In this document: in pieces, positions 18,411 to 56,545 of the stretch | Position numbering within the stretch: the first letter of the stretch is position 1 | Layout of the letters: the number at the start of each line of letters is the position of its first letter | Source of the DNA: Gammaproteobacteria bacterium | Lineage (GTDB): Bacteria; Pseudomonadota; Gammaproteobacteria; Eutrophobiales; Eutrophobiaceae | Direction: 5' to 3' | Length of the DNA: 64,000 bases | Assembly (NCBI GenBank): GCA_965261775.1 | Contig: OZ253477.1 | Span: 933,239 to 997,238 of the forward strand | Position numbers and translations under genes: made by a program | The notes under the pieces: generated by a model | What the model was told of the DNA's origin: nothing | Database searches by the model: none | What the model saw: only the letters and a program-made list of their open reading frames with translations

Positions 18411-19085
18411 ATGAAACGTATTCCCGAACCCGAGTTGATGACCGAAACGGCGCAGGCAGCAGCCTATGCCAATGCGGATTTTGAGGAGCCGCACAGTCAT
18501 TTCATCACATTACTAAAAGACAGGATCGGCCGTTATTTGCCTGAATCGGGCCGGGCGGTTGATTTGGGCTGCGGCGCGGCGGACATCAGTATCCGTTTTG
18601 CCAGGGACTGGCCACGCTACCATATTGATGCGCTGGATGGCGCTTCCGCCATGCTGGCGGAGGCCCGTAAAGCACTCGCTGGTTCGGGTTTAACGGATCG
18701 AATTACCCTGATTGAGACCGGTATCAATGTTTCGTCACTCACGGAGCGGAATTACGATCTGATATTGAGCAACAGCCTGTTGCATCATCTGCATGATCCG
18801 ATGGTATTGTGGGAAACCATCAGGAACGCCGACGGGGCACCATACGTTTTCATTATGGATTTAATGCGCCCGGAAAATCAGACCCGGGTTGATGAGTTGC
18901 TGAACAAATATGCCGGAAATGAACCCGGGATATTACAACGCGATTTCGGCAATTCGTTGAGGGCGGCCTTTACCCCGGAGGAGGTCGAATCCCAGCTAAG
19001 TGCGGCCGGATTGGAAAAGTTAGGGGTTTCCGTTGTATCCGACCGTCACTTTATTGTCAGCACCCCGGGGCAAGTTCCGGATTAA
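18411..19085 (+). CDS. class I SAM-dependent methyltransferase
   Basis: VDLGCGAADIS motif I, 224 aa. Confidence 0.7.
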   Translation: MKRIPEPELMTETAQAAAYANADFEEPHSHFITLLKDRIGRYLPESGRAVDLGCGAADISIRFARDWPRYHIDALDGASAMLAEARKALAGSGLTDRITLIETGINVSSLTERNYDLILSNSLLHHLHDPMVLWETIRNADGAPYVFIMDLMRPENQTRVDELLNKYAGNEPGILQRDFGNSLRAAFTPEEVESQLSAAGLEKLGVSVVSDRHFIVSTPGQVPD

Positions 19086-20092
19086 GCCAAAGCCTCTTTT
19101 GTCGTCTTGACAATGACAGCCGCGACCTTGTAGGGGTCTGCATTGGAAGCGGGACGGCGATCTTCAAGACGTCCCTTCCAGCTATTCTCCACCGTGGCGA
19201 CCGGAATACGAATTGACGCGCCGCGATCAGATACACCGAAACTGAACTGCTCAATGGATTGCGTTTCATGTCTGCCGGTGAGCCGTTTTTCATTCTCGGC
19301 GCCATAAACCACGATATGACGTTCAATATTCCTGCCAAACGCCTCACAGATACTGGTAAAGACATCCTCACCGCCTGATTCACGCATAAAGCCGTTCGAG
19401 AAATTCGCATGCATACCCGAACCGTTCCAGTCAGCGTCTCCGAGCGGCTTCGGATGCCATTCAATGGCCAGTCCGTATTTCTCCGCAGTGCGTTCAAGCA
19501 GATAGCGGGCCAGCCAAGTCTGGTCACCGGCGCTTTTCGCGCTCATGGCAAATACCTGAAATTCCCACTGACCTGCCGCTACCTCGGCGTTAATACCCTC
19601 TATATTAAGGCCGGCCTCAATACAAAGATCAAGGTGTTCTTCAACGACTTCCCGGCCATAGGCGTTATTGGCACCGACAGAACAATAGTACGGTCCTTGC
19701 GGGCGCGGATAGCCCGCATGCGGGAAGCCGGGCGGCAAATTGATGTTGGGATCCCACAAAAAGTATTCCTGTTCAAAACCAAACCAAAAATCATCATCTT
19801 CGTCATCAATGGTTGAGCGCCCGTTTGATTCGTGCGGGGTACTATCGGCATTCAGTACCTCCGCCATCACAAGATAACCGTTTTTACGATCCGGGTCGGG
19901 AATAATCGCAACCGGCTTTAACAAACAATCGGAAGCGCCGCTATCCGCCTGTTGGGTGGAACTGCCGTCAAAGGACCATATCGGACAGTCTTCCAGTTCG
20001 CCAGAAAAATCCGATATTATCTGTGTTTTACTACGCAGGCTCTGGGTAGGTCTATACCCGTCAAGCCATATATATTCGAGTTTACTTTTCAT
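19082..20092 (-). CDS. glnII: glutamine synthetase type II (eukaryote-like GSII)
   Basis: KLEYIWLDGYRPTQSLRSKTQI...WSFDGSSTQQA...DCLLKPVAIIPDP...FGFEQEYFLW, near-identical in pattern to rhizobial GlnII. 336 aa. Confidence 0.88.
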   Translation of the reverse strand: MKSKLEYIWLDGYRPTQSLRSKTQIISDFSGELEDCPIWSFDGSSTQQADSGASDCLLKPVAIIPDPDRKNGYLVMAEVLNADSTPHESNGRSTIDDEDDDFWFGFEQEYFLWDPNINLPPGFPHAGYPRPQGPYYCSVGANNAYGREVVEEHLDLCIEAGLNIEGINAEVAAGQWEFQVFAMSAKSAGDQTWLARYLLERTAEKYGLAIEWHPKPLGDADWNGSGMHANFSNGFMRESGGEDVFTSICEAFGRNIERHIVVYGAENEKRLTGRHETQSIEQFSFGVSDRGASIRIPVATVENSWKGRLEDRRPASNADPYKVAAVIVKTTKEALA

Positions 20093-22133: not shown

Positions 22134-22666
22134 TATTGGCAAAAATGTCTCTCATTGATATGAAAATCCCGATCCTGTTTTTGGGTCTCTTTTGCCTCTT
22201 CGCCGTACAGGCGGAAGGCATATACAAAACAGTTGATAAAGACGGAAACGTCCTTTTTTCCGATACGCCTTCTCCGGGCGCTGAAGAAGTAGAACTGCCG
22301 GAAATTCAGATCATAAAAAGCATAAAACTGGAAGACCTCCCTTCTTTTCCTGTTCTGGACAAGGTTGAGAAGGGGGAAGAACGTTATCAGTCAATTACTA
22401 TTATCGAACCGGAAGAGTCAACGGGTCTGCGTAGCAATAGTGGTGATTTTAAAATATCCGTCGCGCTGGAGCCCGCCCTCAAAGCGTCCCATCGCTTGGT
22501 CATCACTATGGACGGAGAAGAAGTCGCCAATGGCGTTGCAACCAGTATTTCAATTCAAAATGCCGATAGAGGGACACATCAGCTTGAGGCACGGGTAGTC
22601 GATACAGAAGACGAAACGCTCATCTCCACCAACAGCAGCTTCACCCTGTTGCGAACTGCTCAATAA
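22130..22666 (+). CDS. DUF4124 domain secreted protein (paralog B)
   Basis: Signal peptide then YKTVDKDGNVLFSDTPSP. The C-terminal half is paralogous to paralog A. There is a 4-bp start/stop overlap. Confidence 0.7.
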   Translation: MILAKMSLIDMKIPILFLGLFCLFAVQAEGIYKTVDKDGNVLFSDTPSPGAEEVELPEIQIIKSIKLEDLPSFPVLDKVEKGEERYQSITIIEPEESTGLRSNSGDFKISVALEPALKASHRLVITMDGEEVANGVATSISIQNADRGTHQLEARVVDTEDETLISTNSSFTLLRTAQ

Positions 22667-22863
22667 ATTACACTCGCATTCGAGATCCTTCATAAATCAT
22701 TCGGAGTCAGCCCCGGCCCGCTTCCCCAAGGGCGCCGCGGCAAGAGATGACGATGGATAACACCCGGGGACGAACGGGGGATGTGGCGTTGTTCTTTACA
22801 GAAGCCATCATAAGACTGTTTTTTAAATCCGTGGGAACCGACAGCGTCCGCCGTTATTCATTA

Positions 22864-23943
<1,080 letters not shown>

Positions 23944-23988
23944 TCAGAATATTAAAAATCTCCCTCATGCCCGCCTTACAGTATTATT

Positions 23989-24804
23989 ATGCCCGCTTTA
24001 CAGCATTATTTTACAGAATATGAAATCATCATCAGGTTAAGCTGTTTCTGCCTGTTATTGTCGCTTTTTCTGCTACTGGAACTCAAATGCCCGCGCCGGA
24101 TATCGGCACCCGGCACGATACGGCGACGCTTCAATAATCTTGGTTTAATGTGCATTAATGTATTGGCAATCCGTCTAATCGTACCGTTTGCCGCCGTTGA
24201 AACTGCGATATTGGCCGCCCGGAATGAGACGGGGCTATTCAATCTATTATCATTGCCGTTTGCGGTGAATGTCCTGATAACCGTTGTCCTCTTTGACCTG
24301 TTAATCTATCTGCAGCATGTTGCCTTTCACAAAATCCCGATATTATGGCGAATACACAGGGTGCACCATACAGATGATCATGTCGATGTCACAACCGGTA
24401 TACGTTTTCATCCTTTTGAAATTTTCTTGTCCATGGCGTATAAATCAGGCGCTGTTTATTTGCTCGGACCCGCCGCCTTTGCGATCATGCTGTACGAGAT
24501 ACTGTTAAGCATGGCGGCGCTATTCACACACAGCAATATTCTATTGCGGCAAAACGTTGATCTGGCTTTGAGAAGCATCTTTGTAACGCCGGATATGCAC
24601 TGTATACACCATTCGGTGGTGCGGACGGAAACGGATAGCAACTACGGCAATCTGTTTTCATGCTGGGATAAATTATTCAAAACATATCGATCAATGCCCG
24701 CTGCCGGTTATAATAATATATTGATCGGCTTAAATGAGTTTCGCGATCAATCATCAAACCGTTTATTTCAATTACTGAAAAACCCTTTTTTGTTTAACAG
24801 GTGA
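23989..24804 (+). CDS. fatty acid hydroxylase / sterol desaturase superfamily membrane protein
   Basis: Three His boxes (HVAFH, HRVHHTDDH, HCIHH) on a hydrophobic protein. Confidence 0.75.
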   Translation: MPALQHYFTEYEIIIRLSCFCLLLSLFLLLELKCPRRISAPGTIRRRFNNLGLMCINVLAIRLIVPFAAVETAILAARNETGLFNLLSLPFAVNVLITVVLFDLLIYLQHVAFHKIPILWRIHRVHHTDDHVDVTTGIRFHPFEIFLSMAYKSGAVYLLGPAAFAIMLYEILLSMAALFTHSNILLRQNVDLALRSIFVTPDMHCIHHSVVRTETDSNYGNLFSCWDKLFKTYRSMPAAGYNNILIGLNEFRDQSSNRLFQLLKNPFLFNR

Positions 24805-24809
24805 ATATT

Positions 24810-25928
24810 ATGGACCAGGAAAATGCCGTCTTGAAACGTTATTCGGAAGGTGCCAACGAGCGTCAGCCGTCGCTATGCTGTCCGGTTGATTACCAAACGG
24901 AATTACTTGAATTATTACCGAAAGAAATCATTGAAAAGGATTATGGCTGCGGCGACCCGTCGCGGTATATCCGTGAAGGCGACAGGGTGCTGGACCTGGG
25001 CAGTGGCAGCGGCAAGATATGCTATATGGCCGCCCAGCTTGTCGGTAATGAAGGCCGGGTAACCGGTGTTGACATGAATGATGATATGCTGGCGCTTGCC
25101 AGAAAATACCAGGCAGAGATGGTGACTAAACTGGGCAATGATCGGGTCGAATTCAAAAAAGGCAAAATCCAGGACCTTGCCCTGGACATCGCCGCACTGG
25201 AAATGCGGTTGGCGGAAAATCCGGTCAATACGATTGGCGATCTGGAAGCCCTGGAGCACTGGAAAAAAAGTCAATGCGTTGATGCGCCCCTGATCCCGGA
25301 CAACTCGACTGATCTGGTGATATCAAACTGTGTCCTGAACCTGGTCAATGGCGCAGACAAGCAAAAACTGGTCAGTGAAATTTTTCGCGTACTGAAGCCC
25401 GGCGGACGGGTGGCGATTTCCGATATTGTCTCGGACGAATTTGTCCCCGAACATCTCAAGGCCGATGAGCAGCTCTGGAGCGGTTGTATCTCTGGCGCCT
25501 TTCAAGAACAGGAAATGCTTGATATGTTTCAGCAGGCCGGTTTCCTCGCCATCGCCTATGACAAATGGCAGGATGAACCATGGCAGGTGGTTGAAGGCAT
25601 CGAATTTCGCTCCGTCACGCTCACGGCGGTCAAGCGTGAGCAGGTCGACTGCATCGACAAAGGTCATGCGGTGATCTATCGGGGACCTTTCAATTTTGTG
25701 ACGGATGAGGAAGGCCATGAATTCCCGCGAGGCGAGAGGATGGCCGTTTGCGAGCGTACTTTTAATGTACTCACACAGGAACCTTACAAGGACTGCTTTA
25801 TCGGCATTACTCCGGCAAAAGCCCGGAAACCACGTCCGTGGTGCGCCCCACCCGGCACAAAAAGATCGGTAGCGGAAACAAAACACGGTGTCCACAGCGT
25901 GAGTGCAAATGATTCGTCCTGTTGCTGA
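24810..25928 (+). CDS. ArsM-like (arsenite methyltransferase family) SAM-dependent methyltransferase
   Basis: LKRYSEGA...LCCP...DYGCGDP...VLDLGSGSGK...VTGVDMNDDMLALARKY...VISNCVLNL aligns with the ArsM core. The start is coupled to the upstream gene (GTG/ATG overlapping its stop). Confidence 0.6.
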   Translation: MDQENAVLKRYSEGANERQPSLCCPVDYQTELLELLPKEIIEKDYGCGDPSRYIREGDRVLDLGSGSGKICYMAAQLVGNEGRVTGVDMNDDMLALARKYQAEMVTKLGNDRVEFKKGKIQDLALDIAALEMRLAENPVNTIGDLEALEHWKKSQCVDAPLIPDNSTDLVISNCVLNLVNGADKQKLVSEIFRVLKPGGRVAISDIVSDEFVPEHLKADEQLWSGCISGAFQEQEMLDMFQQAGFLAIAYDKWQDEPWQVVEGIEFRSVTLTAVKREQVDCIDKGHAVIYRGPFNFVTDEEGHEFPRGERMAVCERTFNVLTQEPYKDCFIGITPAKARKPRPWCAPPGTKRSVAETKHGVHSVSANDSSCC

Positions 25929-26492
25929 TTTGATCCACAGAAACGGAGTGTGGTAGATTTGAACGCCCATTTTGGGTTACGTATAACCGTATAACAACAT
26001 CACACTTTCTAACTTGCTCCAACAAAACACTTAACAAATACAACAATTGCACCCGGTGTCAAATGGCATCACATGGCAACAATTTTGGCTTCGGGGAGGT
26101 ATGGCAAAGCTTGAAAATCTGGTGTTTAGGAAAAGTGACGCCTTTTGCCTCATACGGGCTTGAGAGGCTTTAGTTCTCAAAGATATTGCGCCGTCATCCA
26201 CGCGGACGTCCTGTTCTCACCAGACCCAGCGTTTACGCAATATGTCGGCAATGTCAATATCGACCCGGAGGTATTAGCCGTCGGCAATATTAAAGGCTAT
26301 GGGCAAATGCCAGACCTGCATATTGCAATGAGTTTGGATAGCGATCCAAAAGATTCTGTACTGGCCCTGTTTAAGGCACCTACCGCAGAATCTTTACTCT
26401 TATTGCGTTTTTTATGGCGCCACAGCTCAGAGACAAAGACAAAAGCGCCCTTTTTTATTTTTAGTGTGAAATACTTGATGCTGTTCCCCGCG

Positions 26493-27236
26493 CTATGCCG
26501 CGGGGTCAGGTAATGTCTGGACGGTATCTTCTATCCAGGTTTCAACTTCCTGCGTAATCTGCTTCGCGTCTTTATTGGCGGACTGAATGGCCGGACCGAT
26601 CACCAGCGTGACCCTGCCCGGTTTTTTAACGAAACTGTTACGCCGCCAGAGATAACCGGCATTATGCGCCACCGGAGTCACGTTGACACCGGATTGTTTT
26701 GCCAGCTCGCTACCGCTGCTCCGGTAGGTGCCCTTTGCTCCAGGGGCGACGCGCGTACCTTCGGGGAAAATGATTATCCAACGTTTTTTTCGTAAAGCAA
26801 TACAACCCTGCCGCAGGACCTGCCGCAGTGATCTGACGACAGAAGCACGGTCAATCACGATAGGGCGCATGCAGGCAATGACCCAACCGTAGATCGGGAT
26901 ATACAGAAGTTCGCGCTTTAATATCCAGACCTGGGGGATGAAAATCCGTTGTAGCAGTAATGTTTCAAACGCCGATTGATGCTTGCACATGACCACGCCC
27001 GGCGTTTTCGGGATGTTTTCCAGACCTTTTATTTCATACTGTATCCCGCAGCAGATTCTCAGCCACCAGAGGCTAAACGCGGCACCGTAGGTGAATAAAA
27101 AGTATCGTCTGTTGAATTGCAGCGGAGATATCAACAAACAGAACGGCAGAAATAAGAAAAAAGTGAAGCTGAGTTGACCAACGTTGAACAGAAAAGAACG
27201 GACGATCAACATCAAACCGGCTATGCCATACGACAT
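26493..27236 (-). CDS. plsC: 1-acyl-sn-glycerol-3-phosphate acyltransferase
   Basis: HxxxxD acyltransferase motif CKHQSAFE plus FPEGTR. Confidence 0.85.
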   Translation of the reverse strand: MSYGIAGLMLIVRSFLFNVGQLSFTFFLFLPFCLLISPLQFNRRYFLFTYGAAFSLWWLRICCGIQYEIKGLENIPKTPGVVMCKHQSAFETLLLQRIFIPQVWILKRELLYIPIYGWVIACMRPIVIDRASVVRSLRQVLRQGCIALRKKRWIIIFPEGTRVAPGAKGTYRSSGSELAKQSGVNVTPVAHNAGYLWRRNSFVKKPGRVTLVIGPAIQSANKDAKQITQEVETWIEDTVQTLPDPAA

Positions 27237-38197: not shown

Positions 38198-39643
38198 TCA
38201 GAGTGGTGCCGGTAAATCGCTCTCCCCCATCAGGAATTTGTCAATGCCTCTAGCCGCGCTTCTGCCTTCCGCAATTGCCCAGACAATAAGGCTTTGCCCG
38301 CGATGCACATCGCCAGCGGCAAAGACACCTTCCACACTGGTCTGCCATGTTTCCGGATCGACTATCATATTGCCCCGTTCATCCAGATCAAGCGCAAGCT
38401 GATTAATCATGCCCGGTTGTTCCGGACCGGTGAAACCCATCGCCAGCAAGGCAAGATCGCAGGGCAACTCCCGTTCACTGCCTGTCACTTCTTCAAAACC
38501 GACGCGATTGCCCTCTTTCTTTAACGCGACTTCTATCAGACTCAGCGCCTTCACATTACCCTGTCCATCGTCAATAAACCGTTTGGTAGAAACCGAATAA
38601 ACCCGTTCCACGCCTTCTTCATGGGCCGAAGCGGTTCGGTAAATATCAGGCCATTCGGGCCAGGGGTTGTCCGCCGCACGAACGGTGGGCGGCTTCGGCA
38701 TAATTTCCAGTTGATGCACGGTTTCACAACCTTGTCTATTGGCAGTACCCAGGCAATCCGCCCCGGTATCGCCACCGCCGATAATCACGACATGTTTTCC
38801 CTCTGCACTGATAAAGTCAGCCGGTCTGTCATCACCTTCACAAAGGCGATTCTGCATAGGGAGATACTCCATCGCCTGATGGATACCGTTCAGTTCCCGA
38901 CCCGCTATCGGCAGATCGCGAGCCGCGCAGGCGCCGCAGGTCAGCAACAACACATGATAATCCTCCCTGAGTTCGGCGACGGAGATGTTTTTGCCGACAT
39001 GGGCTTTGGTCCTGAATTTCACGCCTTCGACCAACAGTTGTTCAAGACGACGGTCAAGCAATCTTTTTTCCATTTTGAATTCGGGGATACCGTAACGTAG
39101 CAGACCGCCGATACGATCGTCACGTTCAAATACCGTAACATCGTGCCCAGCCCTGACAAGCTGTTGCGCGGCGGCCAGTCCAGCGGGGCCGGAACCAATA
39201 ACGGCGACGGTCTTGCCGGTTTTTTTCTCCGCTATGATCGGTTTGACCCAACCATTTTCCCAGGCTTTGTCAATGATGGAAACTTCAACCGCCTTGATCG
39301 TCACCGGGTCATCATTAATGCCCAGAACGCAGGAACCCTCACACGGCGCTGGACATAAAACGCCGGTAAATTCAGGGAAATTGTTTGTGGCGTGCAAACG
39401 CTGAATAGCGTCATACCATTGGTCCTGATAGATCAGATCGTTCCAGTCCGGGATAAGATTCCCCAGAGGGCAGGCCTGATGGCAAAAGGGGATGCCACAA
39501 TCCATACAACGTGAGGCCTGGGTCTTTAATGGTTCAACCGGCCAGGGTTTAGTCACCTGCGTCCAGTCTTTCAGGCGCTCTTCCACCGGGCGATACGGCT
39601 GCGGCATGCGTTTCGCTTCCAGAAAACCCGTTATTTTACCCAT
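38198..39643 (-). CDS. gltD: glutamate synthase small (beta) subunit
   Basis: Fe-S Cys cluster CMDCGIPFC...CP and FAD/NAD Rossmann motif [10 protein letters not shown]. Confidence 0.92.
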
Positions 39644-42600
39644 GTGCCGCCTTCATGATAGCTTCATCAATTGATGCGCCTTCCTGCTTTGCTTTCTTGA
39701 TAGTTTCCAGCACCCGCCGGTAATCTCTTGGTATCACTTTGATGAAAGTGGATTGATACCCTGCCCAATCGTCAAGTATCTTTTGTGCTACCGTGCTTTG
39801 CGTGTAACGCAGATGCTTATTTAACAATGTCTTGAGGGTATCAATATCCTCCTCGTCCTCAACCCTTTCCAGATCAACCATCCCGTGGTTGCAAAGCACC
39901 GAAAATTCGTCTTTTTCCGCCAGCACATAAGCAATACCGCCTGACATACCAGCAGCAAAATTACGGCCGGTCTGACCGATAATCACAACCCGACCCCCGG
40001 TCATATATTCACAGCCATGGTCCCCGACGCCCTCCACAACAGCATTGACTCCGCTGTTGCGCACACAGAAACGTTCACCGGCGATGCCTCGAAATAGGCC
40101 TCACCACGGGTGGCACCGTAGAGCACAACATTGCCGATCAGGATGTTTTCTTCCGGGACGAACGAAGAATGGCGCGGCGGGTAGGACAATGATCCTGCCT
40201 CCAGACAGACCCTTGCCGATATAATCATTGGCGTCGCCTTCCAGCGTCAGCGTGACGCCCTTCGGCAGAAAAGCGCGAAACTCATACCGGCGGAACCGTT
40301 CAAATGGACGTTATCGTGTCTTCCGGCAGGCCTTCGGCACCATAACGTTGGGTAATGTGATAACCCAGTATGGTGCCAACGGCGCGGTCGGTATTTCCGA
40401 CAGGCAGGATAATATCGACCTTCTTTTATTCCCTGGAGCGCATCTTTGCACAGGGGACCAGTTTGGTCACATCAAGTGATTTTTCCAGGCCATGTCTTGT
40501 TCTTTAAACACAATACATTTTGTCGCCTGGGCTCGTTTTGCCTGATACAGGATTCTGGAAAAATCCAGACCACGCGCCTTCCAGTGGTGAATGGCCTTGC
40601 GCGTATCCAGCCTGTCACCCGACCAATCATCTCGTTCACGGGAGGAAACCGAGTCGGGCATATATTCGCGTACTTCTTCGGCGATATATTTGAAAAAATT
40701 TTCAACGAACCCGGCTTGCCAGAAAATTTTGCCGTCAGTTTCGGGTTTTGGGTCGCGATGCCCACCGTGCAGGTATTCAAATGGCAACGCGCATCATAAT
40801 ACAACCCATAACAACCAGCGGCGCGGTCGAGAAGCAGTATTCCTCCGCCCCCAGCAAGGCAGCGATGGTCACATCGCGTCCGGTTTCAACTGCCCATCGG
40901 TCTGCACGACGATGCGGTCGCGCAAACCGTTTTGAACCAGCACTTGTTGTGTTTCCCGCCAGACCGAGTTCCACGGCAAGCCCGCTGTTGCATCGTGAAC
41001 TCAGCGGGGAAGCGCCGGGGCCGCCGTCATAACCCGAAATCAGCACCACATCGGAATGCGCCTTGGCCACACCCGCAGCCACGGTACCGACCCCGGTTTC
41101 CGCAACCAGTTTCACATGGATACGTGCCCTGGGATTGGCATTCTTCAGATCATAAATCCAGTTGTGCCAGGTCTTCTATGGAATAGATGTCATGATGCGG
41201 CGGCGGCGAGATTACACCACACCGGGGTTGAGTGACGCACCCTGGCGATCCATGGATAGACCTTGGTGCCGGGCAATTGGCCGCCTTCGCCCGGTTTGGC
41301 GCCCTGCGCGATCTTGATTTGAATATCATCGGCATTTACCAGATATCGCTGGTAACGCCAAAACGCCCGGAGGCCACCTGTTTGATCGCACTGCGTCTTA
41401 AATCGCATTGGCATCCGGCGTAAAGCGATCCAGATCTTCACCGCCTTCACCAGTATTTGACTTGCCGCCAATGCGGTTCATGGCAATGGCCAGTGTTTCA
41501 TGCGCCTCTTTGCTGATGGAGCCGTAAGACATCGCGCCGGTTGAAAAACGTTCCACGATGCTGTCAATAGATTCAACCTCTTCTATAGGGATCGGCTCTT
41601 TGGCGAAACGAAAACGAAAAGCCTCTCAAGGTAGCAAGGTGCTCGTGCTGTTCATCCACCTTTGCGGTGTATTCCTTGAAAATCCTGTACTGTCCCGAAC
41701 GAGTCGCGTGCTGTAATTTGAAAACCGTTTCAGGATTGAACAGGTGATATTCTCCATCCCGGCGCCATTGATATTCACCGCCCCATTCCAGTTCGGCTCT
41801 TTTGACCACGCGCTCGGGAAAGGCGTTATGGTGCCGCAAACCGACTTCCTCCGCGACGACATCAAGACCGATACCGCCTATATTTGAGGCAGTCCAGCAG
41901 AAGTATTTATCGACAAATTCCCGATCCAGGCCAATCGCTTCAAAAATCTGTGCGCCGCGATAAGATTGAATGGTGGAAATACCCATTTTGGCCATCGTCT
42001 TGATCAAACCCTTATCAGCAGCCTTGATGAAGTTCTGTACGCTTCATCGTGCTTCATCTGCGACGGGAGGTAGCCCTGTCAATCAGATCGGCCAGCGATT
42101 CAAAGGCAAGATAGGGGTTGATACAGCCCGCGCCGTAACCCAGTAAAACGGCAAAGTGATGCACCTCCCTCGGTTCGCCAGACTCGAGTACGATGCTGAC
42201 CCTGGCGCGCGTACCTTGTCGAATCAGATGATGATGCAGACCGGCGACGGCAAGCAGTGCCGGTATCGGGGCCTTGTCACCATCAATATCACGGTCGGAG
42301 AGTATCAGATAGACAATGCCCGCCTTGACCAGTCTGTCCGCCTCGGCAAAAACACGTTGCAACGCAGCCTCCAGGCCAGCGCGCCCATCTGCAACCGGGT
42401 AGCTTATCGAAATTACTGTTGAGGTAAAACCGGGCGCGTCCATATCGCGAATACGCGCCAGCTCTTCATTGGTAATCAGGGGTGATTTAAGTTTGATCTG
42501 ACGACAGTGTAAGGGACCGACTTCCAACGGATTGCCTTCGGCGCCGATCGTTGAACCGATCTGTGTGACCAGTTCTTCACGGATACCATCCAGCGGCGGG

Positions 42601-44180
42601 TTAGTGACCTGCGCGAAGAGTTGTTTGAAGTAATCGTACAGCAGACGTGACCGGTTTGACAAAACGGCCAACGCGGCATCGGTACCCATGGAACCGATAG
42701 CTTCGGCACCCGTTCCCGCCATCGGCGCCATCAAAAGGCGCAGGTCTTCATGCGTATAACCGAATATCTGTTGACGCTGTAACAGGGTTTCATGATTGAG
42801 CCCCAAAGTTTGTTTTGGTAATGGCAGATTTTCGATGGGTTTCATGTTTTCTTTCAGCCACTGCCGATAAGGATGTTCAGCCACAAAGCGCCGCTTTAAT
42901 TCCTCATCGTCAATGATGCGGCCTTCATTGGTATCCACCATAAAGATACGCCCGGGATGCAGGCGTTCTTTTATACTGATATTTTCTGGCAGCACTTCCA
43001 GAACGCCCACTTCGGAAGCCATGATCACCATATCGTCCTTGGTCACGTAATAACGTGAAGGACGCAGGCCGTTTCTGTCCAGCACCGCTCCAATCACTTC
43101 TCCATCGGTGAATGCGATGGATGCCGGACCGTCCCAGGGCTCCATCAGGCAGGCGTGGTATTCATAGAACGCCTTGCGATCTTCATCCATGGTTTCGTGT
43201 CCGGCCCAGGCTTCCGGAACCATCATGAGCATGACCTGCGGTAAAGGCCGACCCGCCATGTGCAGAAATTCCATCACATTATCAAACATGGCGGAATCAC
43301 TGCCGCCTTCAATAACAATCGGAAAAAGTTTTTTCAGATCATCGCCAAACAGGTCGGAATCGCATAGGGCTTCACGGGCGCGCATCCAGTTGACATTGCC
43401 GCGCACGGTATTGATCTCGCCGTTGTGCGCGATATAACGGAACGGATGTGCCAGACGCCAGGAGGGGAAAGTATTGGTCGAGAAACGTTGATGTACCAGC
43501 GCCAGCGCGGATTCAACATCCGGAGCGCCGAGGTCGGGAAACATCGGTTCAATCTGCGGGCCAGTCAGCATGCCCTTATAGATAAAGGTGCGGCGGGAGA
43601 GCGATGCGACATAAAACAGATTTCGCTGCGACAGATCGGAATTCCATATCTCGTGTTCAACACGCTTGCGGATGACATAGAGTTTGCGCTCAAACGCGGC
43701 CGGGTCTATGGCGTCGTTTTTACTGATAAATATCTGCTTGAAATCAGGTTCGCTTTCTTTTGCGCTTGGGCCAAGCGCTGCGTCGTCGGTCGGCACATCA
43801 CGCCAGCCGAGAACGTGTTGATTTTCCTCTTTAACGATACGTTCGAATATTGCACGGCAGCGTTTTGACTGATCGGCGTCAACGGGGAGAAAGACCAGAC
43901 CGGCACCATATTTCTCCGTTTCAGGCAACTTGATACCGATTTCAGTACAGACGCGCCGGAAAAATTTATCTGGCTTCTGGATCAGTATACCGACACCATC
44001 GCCGGTGTTTTCCTCACAACCGCAGGCACCGCGGTGCAGCAGTTTTTTCAGAATGGTGAAAGCGTTATCAACAATCTTGTGGGATTTTCGGCCCTTTATA
44101 TCAACCACAAAACCGACGCCACAGGCATCGTGTTCTGTCGAAGGTTCATACAAACCGGCTTTTTCTATTATTTTCTGCAT
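39636..44180 (-). pseudogene. gltB: glutamate synthase large (alpha) subunit gltB. The N-terminal 708 aa and C-terminal 142 aa are intact, but the central 2 kb (about 40065-42054) carries at least six frameshifts
   Basis: MQKIIEKAGLYEPSTEHDACGVGFV... is the Ntn amidotransferase domain. GltB-homologous peptides ([46 protein letters not shown]) turn up in different frames. The total span of 4545 bp equals full GltB length. Confidence 0.8.
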
Positions 44181-52495: not shown

Positions 52496-53470
52496 TCAGG
52501 AAGCCAGACGCAGGCTGATCAAGTAAAACGCAGTAGCGCCGCATAGACAAAACAGGATTAACCAAAACAGGGAATGAAGATGCAGTTTCCGGGTCAGGGT
52601 ATTCTGTTCAACGGCGGACAGAATGAATGGCCGCCGACTGTCGTTGGTTTTACCTATCCGATTGATCGGTGGTATTTTTTTCCGTTCGCCATATTTCTTT
52701 TTGGCCTCCTGATAAGCGGCTTCCCTGACTTTCTGCCATTCCTGCATGGACAGTTTGCCGTCTTTATTTGAATCAAACCGTTTCATTAACGTTTCCGTAT
52801 CTTGTTTCCATTCACGCAACAAGTCGCGTACATCGGCATTGACGTCAAGTGTCGTGCCCGCCCCACCTATCGTCTCGTACAGGCCAATAGCATAAAGACG
52901 ATTACCGGGATATAACAATTTCTCTGTATATCGATACTTCTTAAAGCTGCCCCCAAAACCGCTAAGAGAAATAAGTTTGTCCAAAGCGGGTATTTTACGC
53001 GCTGTTGGCGGACGGCGCGAGGGCGTATCGCTGTCGCCATACCACACATAGCCGTCTTTAACAGTAACGGACGCCCTCTCGGGGTCAATGATACATTGAC
53101 CGGTTTCATCTTTAATCAGAAACAACGAATCGCTCGCCTCTCTACGTACGGTATACCATCTGTTGCTTTTCGAGGTTGTCCTCCGCTTTTCAAGCCGATA
53201 TTCATACCAGAGACAGGTATCGCCGGAGAATGGCGAGGTAATGGGCTGCCCCTCGATCAAGTGGCCATGGCCGACAAGCTCAACATAGCCCTGCGAGGCG
53301 GAGCGGATCTTTGCGGTCGGCGTATCTTCAATAATGCGTTTTCGGTGGATCAGGCTGAAGGTACGGAAAAAAGAAACTCCACAGATGATCACCAATAAAA
53401 CGGCGTAAAACCAGAATTCATCGTCAGGCGCATTTTCAACCCACTGCGCCACTTTTGAAAAGATACCCAT
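52496..53470 (-). CDS. double-TM membrane protein with EF-hand Ca-binding loop, tandem copy 1 (possible GIDE-like family)
   Basis: N-terminal TM FWFYAVLLVIICGVSFF, C-terminal TM LFWLILFCLCGATAFYLISL, EF-hand loop DSNKDGKLSMQE. AGGAGG Shine-Dalgarno. Confidence 0.7.
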   Translation of the reverse strand: MGIFSKVAQWVENAPDDEFWFYAVLLVIICGVSFFRTFSLIHRKRIIEDTPTAKIRSASQGYVELVGHGHLIEGQPITSPFSGDTCLWYEYRLEKRRTTSKSNRWYTVRREASDSLFLIKDETGQCIIDPERASVTVKDGYVWYGDSDTPSRRPPTARKIPALDKLISLSGFGGSFKKYRYTEKLLYPGNRLYAIGLYETIGGAGTTLDVNADVRDLLREWKQDTETLMKRFDSNKDGKLSMQEWQKVREAAYQEAKKKYGERKKIPPINRIGKTNDSRRPFILSAVEQNTLTRKLHLHSLFWLILFCLCGATAFYLISLRLAS

Positions 53471-53482
53471 CTCGTAGACCTC

Positions 53483-54064
53483 CTAGCCGAAAAGCGCCTT
53501 GATATCTACATCCTTTTTTTCTTCCTCGTCAAATTCAAGCAAACTCGCCTCACGAAAGGCCAGCGCTCTGGCCACAATGATATCCGGGAACTGTTCAATA
53601 CGGATATTGTTGACGTTGACCGACTCATTATAAAATTCGCGGCGGTCGGCAATAGCGTCTTCAAGACCCGATATCCTGGTCTGCAGATGATTGAATGTCT
53701 CATTGGCCTTTAAGTCGGGATAAGCCTCGGCCAGGGCAAATAAATTACCAAGACCCAGCCGCAACTGGCCTTCCGCCGGGCCGAGGGAGGCAATATCCCC
53801 TTGTTCTCTGGCCGCCGCCACAGCAGCCCGCGCGCGCATCACCTTTTCCAGTGTCTCCTGTTCAAAACCCATATATTGCTTACAGGTATCGACCAGCTTG
53901 GGAAGCTCTTCATGGCGCTGTTTCAGCAAGATATCAATATTGGACCACGACTTGGTGACATTATGCTTCAACGACACCAGATTGTTATAAATGACCACGC
54001 CATAGACCACAACGGCCACAATAGCAAAGACGATAACCAATAAAATAACGCTCAACACTTCCAT
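53483..54064 (-). CDS. lemA: LemA family protein (intact copy)
   Basis: N-terminal TM then the LemA domain (...NLFALAEAYPDLKANETF...YNESV). GGGAGG Shine-Dalgarno before ATG 54064. Confidence 0.8.
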   Translation of the reverse strand: MEVLSVILLVIVFAIVAVVVYGVVIYNNLVSLKHNVTKSWSNIDILLKQRHEELPKLVDTCKQYMGFEQETLEKVMRARAAVAAAREQGDIASLGPAEGQLRLGLGNLFALAEAYPDLKANETFNHLQTRISGLEDAIADRREFYNESVNVNNIRIEQFPDIIVARALAFREASLLEFDEEEKKDVDIKALFG

Positions 54065-54210
54065 TATTGCCTCCCGCACTTTTACGCCAAAGCAAAGCTA
54101 AAGTTACAGTATACCTGTGGTTTTTTCATTCACACAATGCGAATGGCCGGCCTCATTCACAATACAGCGCTTATTTACTATAGTAATCCCTATTATATAT
54201 CTTTTTCAAT

Positions 54211-54303
54211 ATCCGCTGCCTTGATAGAAGCGAAGGCGGGCAGACCATCCGCCCCGAGCAGAGACTTATGCCCGTTATGAGACAAGGTAAATACCTCTAC
54301 CAT
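54211..54303 (-). pseudogene. duplicated 5' fragment of prlC (start codon plus about 30 codons) carried along in amplification unit 2
   Basis: About 90% identical to 52377-52468. The ATG is retained and the frame closes after about 36 codons. Confidence 0.8.
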
Positions 54304-54330
54304 CCCGCCGACCCCGGTTTATGCGGTTGG

Positions 54331-55269
54331 TCAGGAAGCTAAACGCAGGCTGATCAAGTAAAACGCAGTAGCGCCGCATAGACAAAACAGGATTAACCAT
54401 AACATAGAATGAAGATGCAGTTCCCGGGTCAGGGTATTCTGTTCGACGGCGGACAGAATAAATGGCCGCCGACTGTCGTTGGTTTTACCTATTCGATTGA
54501 TCGGTGGCATTTTTTTCCGTTCGCCATATTTCTTTTTGGCCTCCTGATAAGCGGCTTCCCTGACTTTCTGCCATTCCTGCATGGACAGTTTGCCGTCTTT
54601 ATTGGTGTCAAACCGTTTCATTAACGTTTCCGTATCTTTTTTCCATTCACGTAACAAGTCGCGTACATCGGCATTGACATCAAGTGTCGTGCCCGCCCCA
54701 CCTATCGTCTCGTACAGGCCGATAGCATAAAGACGATCACCGGGATACAACAATCTCTCTGTATATCGATACTGATTATTAAAGTTGCTCCCCTCGGATA
54801 TTTTACGCGCTACTGGCGAACGGTGCGAAGGCATAGCGCTGCCATACCACACATAATCGTCTTTAACAGTAACAGACGCCCCCTCGGGGTCAATGATACA
54901 TTGACCGGTTTCATCTTTAATCAGAAACAACGAATCGCTCGCCTCTCTACGTACGGTGCGCCATACGTCCCTTATTAATAGGTTCATCAAGTTTATCTCC
55001 TGCTTTTCAACCTGATATTCATACCAGAGACAGGTATCGCCGGAGAGCGGCGAGGTAATGGGCTGCTCCTCGATCAAGTGGCCATGCCCGACAAGCTCAA
55101 CATAGCCCTGCGAGGCGGAGCGGATCTTTGCGGTCGGCGTATCTTCAATAATGCGTTTTCGGTGGATCAGGCTGAAAGTATAGAAAAAAGAAACTCCACA
55201 GATGAACACCAAGAAAACAGCGCGAAACCAGAATTCATAGGCAGGCGCATTTTCAACCCACTGCGCCAC
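54331..55269 (-). CDS. EF-hand double-TM membrane protein, tandem copy 2. Codon 7 is a nonsense mutation (AAA to TAA); the ORF continues from the adjacent GTG
   Basis: Minus strand reads ATGATGGGTATCTTTTCATAAGTGGCGCAG. Downstream sequence is about 85% identical to copy 1. EF-hand loop DTNKDGKLSMQE. Confidence 0.6.
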   Translation of the reverse strand: MAQWVENAPAYEFWFRAVFLVFICGVSFFYTFSLIHRKRIIEDTPTAKIRSASQGYVELVGHGHLIEEQPITSPLSGDTCLWYEYQVEKQEINLMNLLIRDVWRTVRREASDSLFLIKDETGQCIIDPEGASVTVKDDYVWYGSAMPSHRSPVARKISEGSNFNNQYRYTERLLYPGDRLYAIGLYETIGGAGTTLDVNADVRDLLREWKKDTETLMKRFDTNKDGKLSMQEWQKVREAAYQEAKKKYGERKKMPPINRIGKTNDSRRPFILSAVEQNTLTRELHLHSMLWLILFCLCGATAFYLISLRLAS

Positions 55270-55299
55270 TTATGAAAAGATACCCATCATGCAGACCTC

Positions 55300-55437
55300 C
55301 TAGTCGAAAAGCGCCTTGATATCCACACCCTTTTTTTCTTCCTCGTCAAATTCAAGCAAACTCGCCTCACGAAAGGCCAGCGCTCTGGCCACAATAGCAA
55401 AGACAATAACCAATAAAATAACGCTCAACACTTCCAT
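55300..55437 (-). pseudogene. lemA remnant: an in-frame internal deletion leaves a 45-codon miniprotein (N-terminal TM fused to the C-terminal tail). The deletion junction is at the 9-bp direct repeat ATTGTGGCC
   Basis: By alignment to the intact lemA, the 96-nt 3' end is joined directly to the 42-nt 5' end. Frame and ATG are retained. Confidence 0.75.
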
Positions 55438-55555
55438 TATTGCCTCCCGCACTTTTACGCCAAAGCAAAGCTACAGTATACCTGTGGTTTTTTTCATTCA
55501 CACAATGCGAATGGCCTCCATTTACCATCCCGCCGACCCCGGTTTATGCGGTCGG

Positions 55556-56545
55556 TCAGGAAGCTAAACGCAGGCTGATCAAGTAAAACGCCGCAATGCC
55601 GCCTATCCAAAACAGGGCGAACCATAACATAGAATGAAGATGCAGTTTCCGGGTCAGGGTATTCTGTTCAATGGAGGACAGAATAAATGACTGCCGACTG
55701 TCGTTTGTTTTACTCATCAGATTGATCGGTGCCATTTTTTTCCGTGCGCCATGTGTTTTTGTGACATCCTGATAAGCGGCTTCCCTGACTTTCTGCCATT
55801 CCTGCATGGACAGTTTGCCGTCTTTATTGGTGTCAAACCTTTTCTTTAACGTTTCCGTATCTTCTTTCCATTCACGCAACAAGTCGCATACATCGGCATT
55901 GACATCAAATTCTGCGTCCGCCCCACCGATGGTCTCGTACAGACCGATAGCGTAAAGACGATCACCGGGATACAACAATCTCTCTGTATATCGATACTGA
56001 TTATTAAAGTTGCTCCCAAAACCGCCAGGAAAAACAAATTTGTTCAAATCGGATATTTTACGCGCTACTGGCGAACGGGATGAGGGCATGTCGCTGTTGC
56101 CATACCACACATAGCCGTCTTTAACAGTAACAGACGCCCCCTCGGGATCAATGATACATTGACCGGTTTCATCTTTAAGCAGAAACAACGAATCGCTCGC
56201 CTCTCTACGTACGGTGCGCCATACGTACCCTCTGAAGTAGTTTATTGATGTTGTCGTCTGCTTTTCAACCTGATATTCATACCAGAGACAGGTATTACCG
56301 GAGAACGGCGAGGTAATGGGCTGTCCCTCGATCAAGTGGCCATGGCCGACAAGCTCGACATAGCCCTGCGAGGCGGAGCGGATATTTGTGGTCGGCGTAT
56401 CTTCAATAATGCGTTTTCGGTGGACCAGGCTGAAGGTACGGAAAAAAGAAACCCCACAGATGATTACCAATAAAACGGCACAAACCCAGAATTCATAGGC
56501 AGGCGCATTTTCAACCCACTGTGCCACTTCTGAAAAGATACCCAT
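55556..56545 (-). CDS. EF-hand double-TM membrane protein, tandem copy 3
   Basis: MGIFSEVAQWVENAPAYEFW... 329 aa. EF-hand loop DTNKDGKLSMQE. Confidence 0.7.
   Translation of the reverse strand: MGIFSEVAQWVENAPAYEFWVCAVLLVIICGVSFFRTFSLVHRKRIIEDTPTTNIRSASQGYVELVGHGHLIEGQPITSPFSGNTCLWYEYQVEKQTTTSINYFRGYVWRTVRREASDSLFLLKDETGQCIIDPEGASVTVKDGYVWYGNSDMPSSRSPVARKISDLNKFVFPGGFGSNFNNQYRYTERLLYPGDRLYAIGLYETIGGADAEFDVNADVCDLLREWKEDTETLKKRFDTNKDGKLSMQEWQKVREAAYQDVTKTHGARKKMAPINLMSKTNDSRQSFILSSIEQNTLTRKLHLHSMLWFALFWIGGIAAFYLISLRLAS

Follow-up and report, generated by a model that had tools for sequence, protein, structure and literature searches.

The 64,000-nt stretch of DNA analysed here (the window) carries a two-gene operon in which a gene for an integral-membrane di-iron oxygenase (HYD) is followed by one for a methyltransferase (MT), and our comparisons indicate that MT is a genuine ArsM-type enzyme, orthologous to the methyltransferase that partners ArsS in Proteobacteria. 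We would see this locus as a trimmed, two-gene version of the widespread proteobacterial ArsS/ArsM organoarsenical cluster of 'arsenosugar' type, and we give slightly better than even chances to a joint reading in which MT methylates trivalent arsenic and HYD acts as an accessory, lipid-facing oxygenase in metalloid handling. What is known here is the ArsM-type methyltransferase; what is new is its conserved pairing with HYD and the place of HYD in an extended ArsS cluster. A preliminary description of this DNA had proposed two translationally coupled genes; the two open reading frames (ORFs) are real and lie on one strand (23989-24804, 271 aa, and 24801/24810-25928), and they form an operon that we find conserved across a whole clade. 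The families it gave them (FA_hydroxylase for HYD, Methyltransf_31/ArsM for MT) both hold in profile searches.

MT has the core of a class I S-adenosylmethionine (SAM) methyltransferase (Pfam Methyltransf_31 at 102.9 bits against a cut-off of 27, with Methyltransf_25 and Methyltransf_11 matched as well), and its best NCBIfam matches are all of ArsM type, namely NF040538 with 350 bits, PRK11873 with 194 bits and NF038099 (AsSugarArsM) with 134 bits. The curated cut-offs of these models are 500, 263 and 400 bits, respectively, and the orthologues linked to ArsS likewise stay under all three (352-355, 185-195 and 125-136 bits), so that MT and these orthologues have the same NCBIfam profile. Solved ArsM structures in the PDB match MT at E-values of 4.5e-30 to 1.8e-28, and the motifs LCCP, YGCGDP, VISNCVLNL and SGCISGA are all found in it. 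Each of the four Cys residues needed for ArsM catalysis (Cys44, 72, 174 and 224 in CmArsM) has a counterpart in MT, and the PDB alignments put C50 (YGCG), C177 (SNCV) and C229 (SGCISGA) on CmArsM Cys72, Cys174 and Cys224 (residue numbers of MT refer to its 375-aa form, which starts at GTG 24801). That one of the As(III)-binding Cys residues had been lost, as first described, is a misreading: the binding residue is the first Cys of SNCV, corresponding to CmArsM Cys174, and it is kept, while the residue that follows NCV differs among ArsMs, CmArsM having Cys there, the Chlamydomonas enzyme Ile and MT Leu. Among the 75 MT clade members compared, C26/C27, C50, C74, C177, C229, C317 and C374 are invariant. 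We infer, and no more than that, that the C-terminal Cys-Cys pair (Table 1) could serve as a metalloid-delivery tail.

The top-scoring curated model, NF040538, is that of BgArsM from the arsinothricin pathway of Burkholderia gladioli, to which MT aligns in one contiguous match (MT residues 20-323 on model positions 22-326), albeit under the cut-off. BgArsM has 378 aa and its four Cys lie at positions 30, 54, 181 and 233 (PMC8552651); MT is of near-equal length (372-375 aa), and its Cys residues 26, 50, 177 and 229 are set apart by the same gaps of 24, 127 and 52 residues. The two differ in their partners, a noncanonical radical-SAM ArsL in the case of BgArsM, ArsS in that of the MT orthologues and HYD in that of the window MT, near which, unlike in the arsinothricin system, neither an ArsQ permease gene nor an ars operon lies. 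Canonical ArsM/AS3MT enzymes (CmArsM, 4FS8; Chlamydomonas, 5EVJ) have the SAM core and the N-terminal Cys pair in common with MT, whose score with the canonical model PRK11873 falls short of the cut-off and which, in contrast to a canonical detoxifying ArsM, lies outside any ars resistance operon. On the algal structures MT aligns in two stretches around a coverage gap of ~35 residues (MT ~126-159; window ~25176-25277; LALDIAALEMRLAENPVNTIGDLEALEHWKKSQCVDAPL); the same residues fall inside the single contiguous NF040538 match, and the stretch may be a clade-specific insertion. As for the cyanobacterial SsArsM/SsArsS pair, MT orthologues likewise sit directly 3' of a bona fide ArsS, yet MT attains only 134 of the 400 bits required by the cyanobacterial arsenosugar-ArsM model NF038099, and the window is without the ArsS and the TIGR04282/TIGR04283 glycosyltransferases of an arsenosugar system.

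ArsM enzymes accept inorganic as well as organic trivalent arsenicals as methylation substrates (PMC8552651), and to judge from its sequence, methylation of trivalent arsenic is most likely what MT performs. The earlier suggestion of a substrate other than arsenite finds no support in our data, since the four catalytic Cys are invariant, their spacing is that of BgArsM and a single group-specific change separates MTs of the window type from ArsS-linked ones.

The link to ArsS comes from gene context. When one genome per species was searched for relatives of MT, more than 464 loci were obtained, and our locus counts rest on the best 80 of them, which are mostly from Gammaproteobacteria (Thiotrichaceae, Methylococcales, Thiohalophilus, Salinisphaerales, Nevskiales). 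In 48 of these 80 loci the next gene 5' of the MT orthologue encodes ArsS (461 bits with TIGR04167, cut-off 300), and orthologues with 65-78% identity to the window MT are ArsS partners. Dimethylarsenite (DMAs(III)) is adenosylated by ArsS to 5'-deoxy-5'-dimethylarsinoyl-adenosine (PMC13598754). Recurrent neighbours of the MT orthologues further include the TIGR04282 and TIGR04283 'arsenosugar biosynthesis glycosyltransferases', a MerA-like FAD oxidoreductase, a DedA/VTT protein, a PiT-like transporter, DUF547 and DUF3047. Most of these, together with HYD, set the proteobacterial clusters apart from the cyanobacterial pair (MerA-like oxidoreductase, DedA, PiT-like transporter, DUF547, DUF3047, HYD), and no paper linking these extra genes to arsenosugar or ArsS genes was found in the literature searched. 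Hence the preliminary description pointed in the right direction with arsenolipid-type chemistry, inasmuch as MT orthologues sit in ArsS/ArsM organoarsenical clusters. Plain arsenic detoxification, which it had named as the opposite outcome, agrees with our data in that all Cys are kept and disagrees in that the orthologues cluster with ArsS biosynthetic genes rather than with ars resistance operons.

In 26 of the 80 loci HYD and the MT orthologue are no more than 8 kb apart, and four layouts can be told from each other (loci are given by L numbers; arrowheads mark gene direction). Layout A, hemB< HYD> MT>, is that of the window and is found at ~17 loci plus L083-L085 and L169; layout B, hemB< HYD> ArsS> MT>, occurs in L043 and L061; layout C, ArsS> MT> T4283> HYD> T4282>, extends to a seven-gene operon in L073 and L154; and layout E, HYD> DedA> ... 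ArsS> MT>, is seen in L052, L068 and L143. The seven genes (L073, 398-6709; L154, 2073-8399) follow each other with stop/start overlaps in the order PNDR (the MerA-like oxidoreductase), DedA, ArsS, MT, TIGR04283 glycosyltransferase, HYD (FA_hydroxylase) and TIGR04282 glycosyltransferase. With this gene set, the proteobacterial 'arsenosugar-type' cluster goes beyond the ArsS/ArsM pair treated in the papers we found; a literature search that combined ArsS, ArsM and Proteobacteria returned none.

In neighbour-joining trees the layout A MTs are monophyletic, with the layout B locus L061 among their nearest outgroups. Comparison of layout A with ArsS-linked MTs shows 168 of 372 positions at which both groups have the same residue with a conservation of 90% or more, and one group-specific position, a conservative Met/Phe exchange. 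The simplest history would be that arsS was lost once from a HYD-ArsS-MT order at the hemB locus, with the function of MT probably unchanged. Neofunctionalisation of MT after loss of ArsS was considered and rejected because there is only that one conservative group-specific position.

HYD, for its part, belongs to the fatty-acid-hydroxylase/sterol-desaturase superfamily and passes the gathering threshold of Pfam FA_hydroxylase (PF04116) with 96 bits against 31. It has four long hydrophobic segments, and ten His residues, those of its three His boxes plus two further ones (Table 1), are unchanged in all of 120 homologues. No NCBIfam model names HYD; its only match there is to OlsE, the ornithine-lipid hydroxylase (E 7.5e-23), at 81 bits against the equivalog cut-off of 475 (NF052566). 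Its nearest solved fold is that of Scs7p, a sphingolipid alpha-hydroxylase of the Scs7p/FA2H type, with which it is 17% identical. While HYD resembles OlsE and Scs7p/FA2H in its di-iron His boxes and in its membrane topology, its genomic context (ArsM/ArsS clusters, ArsR-rhodanese, DedA-rhodanese) is unlike theirs. In the assembly index, the oxygenase of one clade member (P0180) has entries in 73 blocks.

The junction between the two genes is tight. An overlap of stop and start codons, as proposed before, needs MT to start at GTG 24801, whereas the start is probably ATG 24810, 5 nt past the HYD stop codon TGA, given that the database copy of MT (P0001) has 372 aa and homologues mostly 371-373 aa, and given the position of a Shine-Dalgarno-like AGGTGA (Table 1); this start would replace the overlap by a 5-nt spacer and keep the coupling tight. 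The N-termini of MT relatives align at ATG 24810, and L084 has a comparable AGGTGA ahead of its MT start. In deeper relatives the HYD-MT spacer is 78-230 nt long. No terminator was found between HYD and MT in a scan of 23700-26600 for promoters and terminators, whose counts were no higher than expected from shuffled sequence. Upstream of HYD, a GTGTAAC-type motif recurs 48-50 nt 5' of the HYD start in L001-L004 and L083-L085 (TTGTAAC in L084 and L085); it was not found in deeper relatives, is confined to the closest subclade and may possibly be a promoter or operator element. The HYD start codon is spanned by a 22-nt tandem duplication, which we did not see in relatives, and its first copy starts an out-of-frame ORF of 18 codons that overlaps the true HYD start.

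Table 1. Features of the HYD-MT locus and of other genes in the window (window coordinates).
Feature	Position	Strand	Remarks
HYD	23989-24804	+	271-aa integral-membrane di-iron oxygenase, fatty-acid-hydroxylase/sterol-desaturase superfamily
HYD His box HVAFH	24316-24330	+	H110-H114, HX3H; direct translation
HYD His box HRVHH	24355-24369	+	H123-H127, HX2HH; direct translation
HYD His box HCIHH	24598-24612	+	H204-H208, HX2HH; direct translation
HYD extra invariant His	H141 (24409), H181 (24529)	+	
MT	24810-25928	+	372-aa ArsM-type SAM methyltransferase, BgArsM-like architecture; alternative start GTG 24801 gives 375 aa
MT predicted catalytic Cys	C26/C27 24876-24881; C50 24948-24950; C177 25329-25331; C229 25485-25487	+	
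MT C-terminal Cys-Cys pair	C374, C375; 25920-25925	+	C374 in 75/75, C375 in 74/75 clade members
Shine-Dalgarno-like AGGTGA	24799-24804	+	overlaps HYD stop TGA 24802-24804; 5 nt before ATG 24810
GTGTAAC motif	23930-23936	+	hemB-HYD intergenic; 59 nt 5' of HYD start
22-nt tandem duplication	23967-24010	+	spans HYD start codon; copies ATGCCCGCCTTACAGTATTATT / ATGCCCGCTTTACAGCATTATT
gltB (glutamate synthase large subunit)	39636-44180	-	looks broken
gltB, intact part	42054-44180		N-terminal 708 aa (GATase_2 + central domain)
gltD	38198-39643		intact
GIDE-domain genes around LemA gene	52496-56545	-	three paralogues
Glutamine-synthetase-like gene	19082-20092	-	short, 336 aa; beside Ser/Thr protein kinase

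The following scenario may be envisaged for the pair. MT would bind a trivalent arsenical via its conserved Cys residues and pass methyl groups from SAM to it, yielding methyl- and dimethyl-arsenite or a methylated organoarsenical. With arsS probably lost from an ancestral hemB< HYD> ArsS> MT> order in the window lineage, what is left would be a stand-alone methylation or detoxification module; should the chromosome carry an ArsS gene at another place, MT might instead feed that enzyme. HYD, as a membrane di-iron oxygenase in need of O2 and an electron donor, would be a recurrent yet optional accessory of the cluster. It would most likely hydroxylate or oxidise a lipophilic membrane substrate, candidates being a lipid-soluble arsenical or a lipid of the membrane with the role of acceptor or barrier; that HYD prepares the substrate for MT seems unlikely. 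In all this, the families, the Cys and His conservation, the operon structure, the co-occurrence and the orthology are observed; the arsenic substrate, the loss of arsS and any part played by HYD are inferred.

How far HYD is tied to MT can be judged from the contexts of either gene. The link is facultative on either side: no HYD lies near most of the MT orthologues among the best 80 loci, and conversely the close relatives L086, L167, L168 and L170 keep HYD at the synteny of the window without MT. More distant HYDs in Vibrio and Rhodospirillales stand alone. (A 53-aa ORF 3' of HYD in L086 was considered as a remnant of MT and rejected, being a small lipoprotein-like ORF without similarity to MT.) In a reciprocal scan of metagenomes seeded with layout C HYDs, which gave 80 loci, ArsS and MT accompany HYD in only two, and glycosyltransferases in about ten. 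These figures weigh against the joint reading, and so do the scores of MT under every curated ArsM cut-off and the lack of ArsS, glycosyltransferase, ArsR or arsenic transporter genes in the 64-kb window (Pfam, and tblastn with the cluster proteins). Moreover, we know of no FA_hydroxylase enzyme that acts on an arsenical. A full-text search found no paper that joins arsenosugars or arsenite methyltransferase with a fatty-acid hydroxylase or sterol desaturase.

The commonest neighbour of HYD in the metagenome loci is a divergent ArsR-family regulator fused to rhodanese (20/80), followed by a DedA/VTT protein that usually lies directly downstream (16/80) and was a rhodanese fusion in the representative tested; NifS, DsbD-like and small ArsR genes recur as well. 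Since these commonest neighbours are ArsR-rhodanese and DedA, HYD is part of a wider ArsR-associated membrane module, which is sometimes joined to the ArsS/ArsM cluster (L143, L154). A three-gene module of divergent ArsR-family HTH-rhodanese (HTH, helix-turn-helix), FA_hydroxylase and DedA/VTT, sometimes followed by NifS, can be discerned in L091, L099-L101, L107, L113, L116, L122, L138, L139, L143, L156, L160 and others. A full-text search with TVP38, rhodanese and ArsR found no literature on it.

Could MT and HYD be co-transcribed and have no pathway in common? An ordinary, dispensable, arsenite-detoxifying ArsM would in that case have landed 3' of a resident housekeeping lipid hydroxylase at hemB, and HYD would act on a normal lipid of the membrane and be unrelated to arsenic. 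This would fit the HYDs that stay at the hemB synteny without MT and the lone homologues in Vibrio and Rhodospirillales, as well as the nearest curated family (OlsE) and nearest solved fold (Scs7p) of HYD and the tight HYD-MT spacing, which is limited to the closest subclade. HYD recurs, however, with MT or ArsS in four gene orders and in distinct lineages, and one layout places it between two cluster glycosyltransferases with overlapping stop and start codons. Furthermore, its commonest neighbours outside the clusters are an ArsR regulator and DedA, both with rhodanese, and DedA is also a recurrent component of the clusters. Such recurrence is not expected of chance adjacency, and so to our minds mere co-transcription seems doubtful, albeit worth keeping in view.

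A more far-reaching version of the joint reading would make HYD the lipid-side enzyme of organoarsenical metabolism, either by providing a hydroxylated lipid acceptor or by direct oxygenation of lipophilic trivalent methylarsenicals. In the acceptor variant, the cluster glycosyltransferases would load ArsS-derived dimethylarsinoyl-ribose onto a lipid made by HYD, and the resulting membrane arsenolipids would be flipped by DedA. We consider this rather unlikely.

It may also be asked whether the extended system as a whole is there not for arsenic but for a different chalcogen or metalloid (selenium, tellurium, antimony or reactive sulfur). NCBIfam calls ArsS a '(seleno)protein', and several related ArsM-like NCBIfam models are selenoproteins; in addition, rhodanese domains are present in the commonest neighbours of HYD, and NifS, DsbD-like and MerA-like oxidoreductase genes recur. 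Against this, the available biochemistry of ArsS and BgArsM-type enzymes has all been with arsenic, the Cys geometry of ArsM is fully conserved and PiT-like phosphate/arsenate transporters recur in the clusters, which together leave a substrate other than arsenic improbable.

Finally, the proposal put forward in the preliminary description, namely that HYD hydroxylates a lipid or isoprenoid head group which MT then O- or N-methylates, could draw on the single operon, on the lipid-modifying superfamily of HYD and on the scores of MT under all curated ArsM cut-offs, but we regard it as largely refuted at the sequence level and highly improbable: its premise of a lost Cys is false, ArsM-type enzymes methylate a Cys-bound trivalent metalloid, the four catalytic Cys and the C-terminal pair are invariant or nearly so, orthologues of 65-78% identity that differ by one group-specific change partner ArsS, and each gene often occurs without the other, at odds with an obligate two-step route.

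The surroundings of the pair were surveyed with Pfam, which covered the ORFs of 150 aa or more and a 122-aa ORF adjoining the pair. Pfam returned housekeeping genes only, and no ArsC, arsB/acr3, arsH, DedA or MerA-like gene was found in the 64-kb window. The genes hemB, glyS and glyQ and those for a PlsC-type acyltransferase and a GmhB-like phosphatase keep their synteny in relatives. The 'lipid context' that hemB and plsC had been thought to provide is incidental, as folD or other genes split MT from plsC in relatives, and we take it for conserved housekeeping synteny rather than functional context. As to an ArsS encoded elsewhere, the ArsS of L061 was used as a query, and among its 120 best matches (all of at least 68% identity) none could be traced to genomes of the window type, which is weak evidence.

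Some features of the window lie apart from the pair. In gltB, the 2.4 kb that follow the intact N-terminal part (Table 1) hold at least six frame-shifted pieces, in the order of central-domain end, FMN domain and GXGXG domain, so the gene is either a pseudogene or affected by local assembly frameshifts; gltD is intact. Between the DUF4124 pair and hemB there are only ~200 nt in the window (22666-22864), at a site where L001, L002, L004, L083-L086, L167 and L168 carry ntrB-ntrC (histidine kinase and sigma-54 response regulator). The ntrB-ntrC gap and the broken gltB, taken together, suggest loss of an Ntr/GOGAT nitrogen module in the window lineage. A LemA gene has three paralogous GIDE-domain genes around it, and a short glutamine-synthetase-like gene lies beside a Ser/Thr protein kinase, an arrangement also present in L001, L002 and L004.

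Our analysis defines a large MT clade (more than 464 genome loci) for which NCBIfam has at present no named model, and it shows that proteobacterial ArsS/ArsM clusters have a recurrent set of extra genes, a membrane di-iron oxygenase among them. To our knowledge, no genes have been assigned to the steps of arsenosugar formation past ArsS or to any part of arsenolipid biosynthesis. One marine gammaproteobacterial clade retains just the oxygenase-ArsM pair, which thereby offers a two-gene construct for asking whether the oxygenase joins in arsenic biotransformation. If the oxygenase is unrelated to arsenic, the locus would be an ordinary ArsM beside an uncharacterised lipid hydroxylase. If, on the other hand, HYD does act as the lipid-side enzyme of organoarsenical metabolism, marine Gammaproteobacteria would have, in the HYD-ArsM pair, a minimal bacterial pathway that leads to lipid-associated arsenic.

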